The translations under genes and the position numbers were made by a program. This document shows, piece after piece, positions 57,113 through 57,901 of a stretch of 64,000 bases of DNA. Numbering within the stretch: position 1 is the stretch's first letter; the number at the start of each line of letters is the position of its first letter. The DNA lies in sequence record OR532814.1, one strand, 5' to 3'. The stretch is from Klebsiella phage RCIP0020. The notes under the pieces are model-generated. The model was not told the DNA's origin, did not search any database, and worked only from the letters and a program-made list of their open reading frames with translations.

Positions 57113-57901
57113 ATGACTCACTTGAAAAAATTCAAAGAATTTCTGACCGAAGGTAAAACCCTCGCTCGTACCGTAGCACGTGGTCAACGCGCTAAAACTT
57201 CCGATAAACATTCAATCGGTTTTCTTCACTTCAAACATGGTTCTGATTTCGAAGTTTTAGCACCGGATTCTCACGATCTGGCATACTTCGGTAAAAACAT
57301 TGTACGTTTGAAAGGTATGACTACTGGTAAAGTTCAAGCGGCTTATGTCGATTGGGCTAAAGGTACTGTTTCTTTCTACAGTGGCAATCCGGATGATGAT
57401 CTGGATTTCGACAAACCAGAAAAATTCAAAGCTGCTACTCTGTATGAAGAGGCGGAAGAAAATCTGGATCTGTATAACCAGTTAGCAGAAGATTTCGAAA
57501 TCGAGATCCCTATGGATGAAGCTCTGGTGAAAGGTAAAGTTTACAAACTCCCAAGCAACGATATGCGTCTTCTGTACACTGGGCGTTCTAAAACTAAAGC
57601 AAGCGGTGAATATGCAGTGTTTACCGTAGTTGATGCTTCCGGCAAACCTCGCCTAGTATCTGGTAAAAAATTCACCCAAGAATATAAAGGCGATATGGTT
57701 TCTAAACTGGTTCTGGCTGAATCCGAAGATCTGAATGAAGCGGCTAAAGGCATTCGCGAAAAAGTTATTGCTGTGATGGTGAAACGCGGGTTTAACGAAA
57801 AAGATGCAGAAAAGATGGTTGACAAAAACCTGAAAGATGCTATGAAAGTTAGACCTGGTGCGACCCCTGGCAAACTTGCAGAAATAGTTAGCACCCTGTA
57901 A
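57113..57901 (+). CDS. putative internal (capsid-packaged, injected) protein with a CTS-like N-terminus; highly expressed
   Basis: N-terminus MTHLKKFKEFLTE|G resembles the T4 IP capsid-targeting sequence MKTYQEFIAE|A, with an L-x-E gp21 cleavage motif. Basic, K-rich. Strongly biased high-expression codon usage. Two σ70 promoters, a CTAAATAC late-like motif, and a strong terminator. Confidence 0.5.
   Translation: MTHLKKFKEFLTEGKTLARTVARGQRAKTSDKHSIGFLHFKHGSDFEVLAPDSHDLAYFGKNIVRLKGMTTGKVQAAYVDWAKGTVSFYSGNPDDDLDFDKPEKFKAATLYEEAEENLDLYNQLAEDFEIEIPMDEALVKGKVYKLPSNDMRLLYTGRSKTKASGEYAVFTVVDASGKPRLVSGKKFTQEYKGDMVSKLVLAESEDLNEAAKGIREKVIAVMVKRGFNEKDAEKMVDKNLKDAMKVRPGATPGKLAEIVSTL

Follow-up and report, generated by a model that had tools for sequence, protein, structure and literature searches.

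The 64,000-nucleotide stretch of Klebsiella phage RCIP0020 DNA analysed here (the window; OR532814.1) comes from a KP27-like Slopekvirus and corresponds to about 43.7-107.7 kb of the KP27 genome. Between gene 3, for the head-proximal tail-tube tip, and gene 2, for the DNA end protector, it carries on the strand opposite to both a coding sequence (CDS) of 262 amino acids, equivalent to KP27_206 and KP15 gp175, which is annotated as hypothetical and placed in PHROG 7322, a family of unknown function. A preliminary description of the locus had correctly placed this open reading frame (ORF) and its strand, although its length of 263 amino acids counted the stop codon, and had proposed that KP27_206, as we call gene and protein throughout, is a packaged, processed protein with a T4-like capsid-targeting sequence (CTS). 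The proposal of packaging and processing is supported by several independent computational lines, namely the leader, the linker that follows it, the promoters, codon adaptation and the protease. From directly computed sequence features, conservation, regulatory signals and fold predictions we infer targeting, cleavage, packaging, injection and host activity, and we consider it rather probable that KP27_206 belongs inside the head as a CTS-tagged protein of the T4 'IP' (internal protein) kind; cleavage would follow LTE13, and what is left would be packaged and probably enter the host by injection. The locus contains the following features.

57113..57901, plus strand: KP27_206 CDS, 262 amino acids (ATG at 57113, stop codon at 57899-57901)
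57113..57151, plus strand: predicted capsid-targeting propeptide MTHLKKFKEFLTE, predicted cleavage after E13 (L-T-E/G)
57101-57104, plus strand: Shine-Dalgarno sequence AGGA, read off the sequence, 8 nt 5′ of ATG 57113
57065..57072, plus strand: late-promoter-like motif ACTAAATA, ending 41 nt 5′ of the KP27_206 ATG
56823..56851, plus strand: sigma-70-type early promoter P1, TTGACC-17-TATAAT, 11/12 matches to consensus; KP27 annotates a promoter here
56939..56967, plus strand: sigma-70-type early promoter P2, TTGAAT-17-TATAAT, 10/12 matches to consensus; 77% identical to P1 over 31 nt
57906..57938, both strands: hairpin terminator (stem-loop 57906-57933), bidirectional, with T/A runs on either side; annotated as a terminator on both strands in KP27
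56213-56743, minus strand: gp3, head-proximal tail-tube tip (KP27 annotation)
57938-58792, minus strand: gp2, DNA end protector (KP27 annotation)

The N-terminus of KP27_206 resembles the leaders of T4 internal proteins. T4 IPII and IPIII begin with MKTYQEFIAE and are cleaved before A; T4 IPI begins with MKTFKEFTSTTTPVSTITE (MKTFKEFTST...ITE/A), also cleaved before A; and T4 Alt begins with MELITE/L, without the shared motif. Because IPI and Alt begin otherwise, a single MKTYQEFIAE consensus is valid only for IPII and IPIII, and the parallel that had been drawn with all of these leaders holds for IPII and IPIII and falls for the other two. We scored the N-terminus of every predicted ORF with a BLOSUM matrix against residues 2-11 of T4 IPII/IPIII (KTYQEFIAEA). 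KP27_206 came first of the 280 KP27 ORFs with a score of 26 (mean 0.9, standard deviation 5.4), the runner-up reaching 17. In T4, IPI scored 24, the best ORFs without a CTS-like leader 22 and gp61.1 31, the last above KP27_206. N-terminal scoring and a motif scan of the 280 ORFs found no other KP27 protein with an IPII/III-type leader.

According to a review of Black's experimental work, residues 4 and 7 of T4 IPIII serve targeting and residues 8 and 10 processing (PMC9026906). At these positions the KP27_206 family (14 sequences, down to 47% identity) has, in order, an invariant F, L/F/M, L/I and an invariant E, and the homologues start with MKSFKELLSE/S, MKTFKELITE/S, MKNFKEFLNE/V or MKQFKQFLSE/V. 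In KP27_206 itself the motif is shifted by +3: the targeting positions are F7 and F10, and the processing positions are L11 (L/I in the family) and the invariant E13, with S, G or V at P1′, which bears out the L/I-x-E site proposed earlier. F7, K8 and E13 are invariant across the family. The propeptides of T4-type internal proteins are 10-19 amino acids long (PMC9026906), and the 13-residue leader agrees with the short, separable N-terminal propeptide of T4-type CTS proteins. Directly after E13 the alignment shows a 4-column indel and then a variable stretch, and the AlphaFold predicted local distance difference test score (pLDDT) is below 50 over residues 1-14, which together place the leader outside the fold. 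As judged from alignment and model, this pattern of a conserved signal followed by a flexible linker fits a propeptide and not a structural helix. An alternative start at the in-frame TTG 57122 (codon 4) would make the CTS exactly 10 residues long, but was rejected because the Shine-Dalgarno spacing suits ATG 57113.

The tandem sigma-70 promoters named in the preliminary description were recovered as P1 and P2, which are the first and second copies within a tandem duplication of ~115 bp, and the region upstream of KP27_206 contains 12 promoter-like sites against 3.6 ± 2.1 in shuffled sequences. A T4 early promoter (GTTTAC...TAnnAT) lies immediately 5′ of each of the T4 genes ipI, ipII and ipIII, and none of them has TATAAATA within 130 nt, so the strong early promoters of KP27_206 are no argument against an internal protein. 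The late-like motif, given earlier as CTAAATAC at 57066-57073, was also found, here as ACTAAATA at 57065-57072, the identical 8-mer to that upstream of gp6. In KP27, 15 bona fide late genes have [TCAG][ATC]TAAATA upstream, at a distance of 17-53 nt from the start, the xCTAAATA variant precedes gp6 (ACTAAATA), gp3, gp53, inh, gp38 and t, and 22 of the 60 [CA]TAAATA sites in the genome fall 10-70 nt 5′ of a same-strand ORF. The window is short of TATAAATA, the canonical late promoter of T4, having 2 sites where 3.7 would be expected; xCTAAATA or xATAAATA takes its place before many of the phage's late genes, among them gp6, gp3, gp53, inh, gp38, t, gp23 and gp24. The equivalent motif upstream of the KP27_206 homologues is AATAAATA at -39 in RB43 and a perfect TATAAATA at -38 in JC221. 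Thus, a late motif is kept 38-41 nt upstream in three lineages (Slopekvirus, RB43 and JC221), within flanking DNA that can hardly be aligned, and on this comparison the gene is very probably also transcribed late, at the time of prohead building.

The strong hairpin terminator seen earlier held up as well. It occupies the 36-nt gap between the convergent KP27_206 and gene 2, has a folding energy of -16.9 kcal/mol (z = -3.2, equalled by 0/200 shuffles) and is followed by a U run; a consensus terminator scanner missed it because of its internal loop. With E. coli codon weights (the Sharp and Li values), the codon adaptation index (CAI) of KP27_206 was 0.535, rank 8 of 267 ORFs, and with weights from the phage's own gp23/18/19/32/45 it was 0.672, rank 6 of 263 ORFs. 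This codon adaptation, in the top 3%, is similar to that of gp22, gp19, gp32 and gp45 and below that of gp23; a codon bias previously called extreme is therefore better described as high (rank 6-8 of ~265 ORFs).

A protease able to process such a leader appears to be available. The KP27 annotation includes gp21, gp22, gp67 and gp68, the KP27 gp23 maturation site FGGFLAE/AEIAGDHGY aligns with FLTE/AEIGGDHGY of T4, and KP27 gp22 begins with MLKEQLLAE/A. Because the gp23 and gp22 sites are conserved, the gp21-type protease of KP27 very probably retains the L/I-x-E specificity. In KP27_206, protease-type motifs occur in each of three low-confidence linkers (LTE13/G; MDE136/A; LAE203/S together with LNE209/A), and the L-x-E-[SA] motifs that flank a variable insert stay conserved even where the modules that follow them differ. 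Cutting of KP27_206 into two or three pieces is possible on these motifs, but speculative.

Behind the leader, the predicted structure of KP27_206 comprises three domains.

57152..57493, plus strand: N-terminal domain (amino acids 14-127), a beta-sandwich with a capping long helix, loosely PH/PTB-like
57521..57721, plus strand: middle domain (amino acids 137-203), a small SH3/Tudor-like beta-barrel ending in a conserved L-x-E/S/A motif (LAE203/S)
57740..57898, plus strand: C-terminal three-helix mini-domain (amino acids 210-262), a shuffled module akin to DUF7421 / phrog_9411, preceded by LNE209/A

KP27_206 belonged to no Pfam family, gave only noise in NCBIfam and returned nothing below E = 0.48 in a PDB sequence-profile search; in PHROGs it was found only in families of unknown function, and BFVD returned only uncharacterised phage proteins. 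Matches to CarD, Mfd and UvrD raised an RNA-polymerase-binding reading, which was not adopted: they were too weak, and SH3-like barrels match generically at such a level. Since there is no enzyme fold among the three domains, binding is the likeliest activity, and the models suggest that the mature protein most likely acts on a partner (host protein, DNA or scaffold) by binding and not by catalysis. The C-terminal 53 residues belong with the ~50-residue three-helix proteins of DUF7421 / phrog_9411, although the DUF7421 Pfam model stays below significance on the window protein and the module here follows a leader and two further domains in one polypeptide. In many phages the same module exists as a free 53-residue protein. 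One of these is the paralogue KP27_019, which lies outside the window on the minus strand of an early-gene cluster, is 50% identical to the C-terminal module and has no leader; KP27_019-like copies also occur in Salmonella chromosomes, presumably in prophages. In RB43 (ORF200w), Margaery and leN the gene stops after the middle domain (~202 amino acids) and the C-terminal module is a separate ORF of ~77 amino acids elsewhere. Further lineages have an extra helical insert of ~80 amino acids or a different C-terminal module, and all of these swaps occur at a conserved L-x-E-[SA] junction.

The family is narrow and old. Relatives of KP27_206 number 24 among 1.84 billion representative proteins, 162 phage records cover at least 80% of the CDS, and the family is restricted to Slopekvirus, Pseudotevenvirus and a few related phages (JC221, Phynn). 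An identical protein (100%) is present in 64 records, including the Slopekviruses KP27, KP15, Miro, Matisse, phiEap-3 and PMBT1, and identity is at least 99% in 94 Slopekvirus records. Slopekvirus, RB43 (ORF200w) and Yersinia phage JC221 all have the gene flanked by gp3 and gp2 and opposed to them in strand. T4 has genes 3 and 2 as neighbours on the same strand, so the gene, described earlier as inserted, is an insertion relative to T4 only; within the clade this synteny across three lineages led us to reject a recent insertion and to regard KP27_206 as an old resident. It is 75% identical to its RB43 counterpart and 73% to that of JC221, and in the same comparison the neighbouring gene products show 62-69% (gp3), 76-85% (gp2), 81-83% (gp4), 78-80% (gp53) and 47-53% (gp1). 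By this comparison, purifying selection acts on KP27_206 as strongly as on essential virion genes. The ip loci of T-even phages are described as poorly conserved (PMC9026906), a pattern that KP27_206 does not follow, its variation being confined to the C-terminal modules. Such slow evolution weighs against a narrowly targeted arms-race inhibitor, and the conservation better suits a conserved head-internal component, which might help in assembly or in packing the DNA, or act on a host target that is itself conserved.

We then considered CTS-like leaders on other proteins. A strict regular expression for the leader missed other leader-bearing proteins that a looser version recovered. Applied to T4, the same pattern search recovered IPI, IPII and IPIII and also gp61.1, a hypothetical protein of 54 amino acids on the minus strand whose start, MKTFKEFIKE/D, is closer to the IPII/III CTS than that of IPI; to our knowledge gp61.1 is not a listed head protein. 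Some free C-terminal modules carry a CTS-like extension (P0025, MLTFNEFLNE/AKN...; P0032, MAKTFLEFLTE/SESLAE/A...), and the 53-residue forms are leaderless, so that the leader acts like a tag that can move between proteins. In KP27, outside the window (141455-142294, minus strand), KP27_252 encodes a Zeta-toxin-like P-loop kinase of 279 amino acids (PF06414, 30.6 bits), unrelated to KP27_206, that starts with MKSFKQFTESTLTE followed by /AL, an IPI-type leader near MKTFKEFTST...ITE/A of T4 IPI. Within its family (1,611 matches), nearly all of the 120 members examined start with M-x-S/T-F-x-D/E/Q-F/Y..., then L-x-E/A. KP27_252 also has a late-type motif, AATAAATA, 27 nt upstream and high codon adaptation, and it may be a packaged, injected kinase. 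A DUF5856 / Dps-like protein of 127 amino acids (window 33239-33622, minus strand; PHROG 858, a homologue of T4 rI.-1) starts with MQSFKQITES. It has a good Shine-Dalgarno sequence at an internal ATG, 33622, and TATAAATA at 33964-33971 precedes an upstream signal-peptide ORF. The leader reading is weaker for this protein because T4 rI.-1 starts with MKFSDFSQSG, without the Glu. The metagenomic protein P0034 joins a DUF5856 domain to the C-terminal module of KP27_206.

If KP27_206 is an internal protein, the two strong sigma-70 promoters early and the ACTAAATA promoter late would provide large amounts of it. Its first 13 residues, MTHLKKFKEFLTE, would act as a CTS that docks the protein onto the scaffolding core during prohead building, and a gp21-type prohead protease would cleave after L-T-E13. 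The 249-residue remainder would be kept in the head beside the DNA and leave with it at infection. Additional cleavage at LAE203/S and LNE209/A, in disordered linkers, could release the C-terminal three-helix module of 53 residues as a small protein.

Several observations weigh against packaging. Compared with its homologues and with T4, the leader of the window protein, MTH-LKKFKEFLTE/G, has three extra residues. Searches of the mature protein against T4 (BLASTP to IPIII and per-domain tblastn of the T4 genome) gave no match, so the parallel with T4 internal proteins does not extend to sequence similarity of the mature part. T4 internal proteins are typically ~8-20 kDa, lysine-rich and DNA-binding. 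The predicted mature KP27_206, at 27.6 kDa with an isoelectric point (pI) of 7.9, is neither as small nor as basic, its lysine content of 12.6% being offset by D+E; the full-length protein has 33 lysines in 262 residues, 43 K+R against 41 D+E and a pI of 8.4, and of the earlier wording 'basic, K-rich' only the second part stands. UvsW.1, which is not known to be packaged, begins like a CTS in T4 (MLLEFKQFLYE/A) as well as in KP27 (MKSFNDFRLYE/A; minus strand). The preliminary description had regarded similarity shared with non-packaged proteins as a point that would tell against its proposal, and UvsW.1 goes some way towards that: the tag is not fully specific, and either the motif is unspecific for packaged proteins or UvsW.1 is itself a virion candidate. 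MKSF-type starts are fairly common, and MKSF alone is not diagnostic because the loose pattern also caught a 57B-like protein as well as UvsW.1. The genomic context of P0032, next to an IS607-like element and an S-adenosylmethionine (SAM) lyase, does not mark its phage as T4-like. Finally, a search of the literature, including work on KP15/KP27, phiEap-3 and Kpn35/Rpl1, Nolan 2006, Petrov 2010 and an RB43 cryo-EM preprint, found no virion proteome or transcriptome of a Slopekvirus or Pseudotevenvirus. For these reasons we regard the predictive value of the CTS motif alone as moderate, and the case for packaging rests on taking the motif together with the pattern of the linker behind it, the late promoter upstream, the level of expression and the place in the genome.

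The alternatives differ in whether KP27_206 would enter the capsid and in what it would do there. It could be a cytoplasmic early or late protein that never does so, with an N-terminal amphipathic helix that only looks like a CTS and an accessory role in host takeover or in replication/assembly. The UvsW.1 starts, the frequency of MKSF/MK.Y-type starts (T4 rIIA.1, ndd.1 and td score 18-22), the leaderless KP27_019, which implies that the C-terminal module can work without packaging, the strong early promoters and the lack of basicity are all consistent with such a protein. We nevertheless think it unlikely, if worth keeping in view, since the leader score stands well over the genome background, the conserved leader and the indel-rich, disordered linker behind it are unlike a structural helix, the late promoter is present in three lineages, and T4 ip genes are early-promoted too. 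KP27_206 could also be an accessory of the prohead core or scaffold (gp67/gp68-like, or with the assembly role of IPIII), which would be targeted to that core, be cut by the protease and serve mainly in assembly; afterwards it would be degraded and expelled, or stay in the head with nothing to do in the host. T4 heads assemble more slowly when IPIII is missing (PMC9026906), KP27_206 is as conserved as its essential structural neighbours (73-75% against 62-85% for gp3, gp2, gp4 and gp53), its codon adaptation equals that of gp22, and the three [LI]xE[ASG] motifs in disordered linkers suggest multiple cuts. This reading is nonetheless very improbable in our judgement: KP27_206 has no similarity to gp22, gp67 or gp68, its compact globular domains do not have the composition of an acidic coiled-coil scaffold, and its C-terminal module has been exchanged or dropped in some lineages, which would be unexpected for part of a scaffold.

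The preliminary description had favoured an injected inhibitor of host restriction or defence, like T4 IPI*, which is injected and inhibits GmrSD (PMC3012670). A packaged protein would arrive with the DNA ahead of phage gene expression, which suits pre-emptive inhibition (PMC3012670), all three domains have protein-binding-type folds, and the C-terminal modules are shuffled between lineages. On the other side, we found no homology of KP27_206 to the sequence or fold of IPI* or to any known anti-defence family (Pfam, NCBIfam, PDB profile and T4 searches), the protein is identical or nearly so across the Slopekvirus records given above, and across genera it evolves as slowly as structural genes, unlike the T-even ip loci. 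An anti-defence function is thus unsupported and somewhat disfavoured, and we consider this version of a packaged KP27_206 doubtful. A broader and tentative proposal, which we put forward as an unlikely extension of the internal-protein reading, is that Slopekvirus, Pseudotevenvirus and related T4-like phages package a set of CTS-tagged cargo proteins that is missing from T4. KP27_206 would then be a polyprotein-like cargo, cut at LTE13/G, LAE203/S and LNE209/A to yield a binder (PH-like plus SH3-like) and a three-helix effector of 53 residues, and delivered with the Zeta-toxin-like kinase.

Compared with T4 IPII and IPIII, KP27_206 shares a tag with an aromatic residue at position 4, a hydrophobic one at 7, L/I at 8, E at 10 and a small P1′ residue, as well as a strong early promoter directly 5′, the codon adaptation of an abundant protein and a phage that encodes a gp21-type protease; in size it is closer to IPIII (193 amino acids) than to IPI or IPII. 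It differs in a mature part that is dissimilar in sequence, has three domains and is large and nearly neutral where the T4 proteins are small and basic, in the three N-terminal residues added to the Slopekvirus tag, in its recognisable late promoter, and in lying between genes 3 and 2, whereas the T4 genes lie near e/denV. The likeness to IPI concerns the N-terminus, where family members such as P0004 (MKTFKELITES) match IPI almost completely over seven residues, and the neighbourhood: as stated earlier, T4 ipI lies in the same general region (order ipI-57B-57A-1-3-2-4), four genes off, and KP27_206 is itself surrounded by head-completion and tail genes. In contrast, KP27_206 shows no homology to IPI* in sequence or fold, and its gene is conserved, not hypervariable. 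PeSL-type early-gene cassettes have been described in T4-type phages (Arbiol et al. 2010, PMC2839356), and KP27_206 resembles them in being a single gene opposed to its neighbours that has strong sigma-70 promoters of its own, AT-rich DNA upstream and a terminator stem-loop of the form GGGG...CCCC. It differs from them in lying inside a conserved block of virion genes and not in a hyperplastic region, in a position fixed in three lineages, and in having an extra late promoter.

Among Klebsiella phages, Slopekviruses rank with those most frequently isolated for therapy, and this abundant, conserved gene of theirs so far carries only a 'hypothetical' annotation. Diverse CTS-tagged internal proteins are already established in T4-type phages (PMC3012670, PMC9026906), and KP27_206 would join that class, notable for its size, domain make-up and conservation. 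If packaged and injected, it would be the first candidate internal protein of the pseudo-T-even clade, its 13-residue leader would be a natural tag for loading foreign proteins into the heads of Klebsiella/Enterobacter phages, as the T4 CTS has been used, and its host target, should one exist, could be a new phage-host interaction. CTS-type leaders could then reveal injected cargo from genome sequence alone. Were the cargo-set proposal correct, injected enzymes and binders would be widespread in T4-like phages and could be listed from genomes by means of the CTS.

Two further observations concern the surroundings of KP27_206 and the KP27 genome. KP27_067, a hypothetical protein of 569 amino acids encoded on the plus strand outside the window, shows a weak DnaJ J-domain match over residues 14-60 (20.9 bits, below the Pfam cut-off of 27.8), high codon adaptation, CATAAATA 58 nt upstream and the N-terminus MITESKMTYQEALKV. 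The intergenic region between gp3 and KP27_206 (56744-57112) is 75% A+T and has 10 GATC sites, the densest 300-bp stretch of the window. GATC sites number 410 over the whole 64 kb, a density of 6.4 per kb where a random 4-mer would give ~3.9; Dam-type methyltransferases are encoded by the phage. The same region holds a 42-nt imperfect inverted repeat (arms 56790-56831 and 57024-57065), the right arm lying just 5′ of the late-promoter motif of KP27_206 and the left arm 5′ of that of gp3 on the other strand. These repeats and the GATC density suggest possible Dam-dependent or protein-mediated control.

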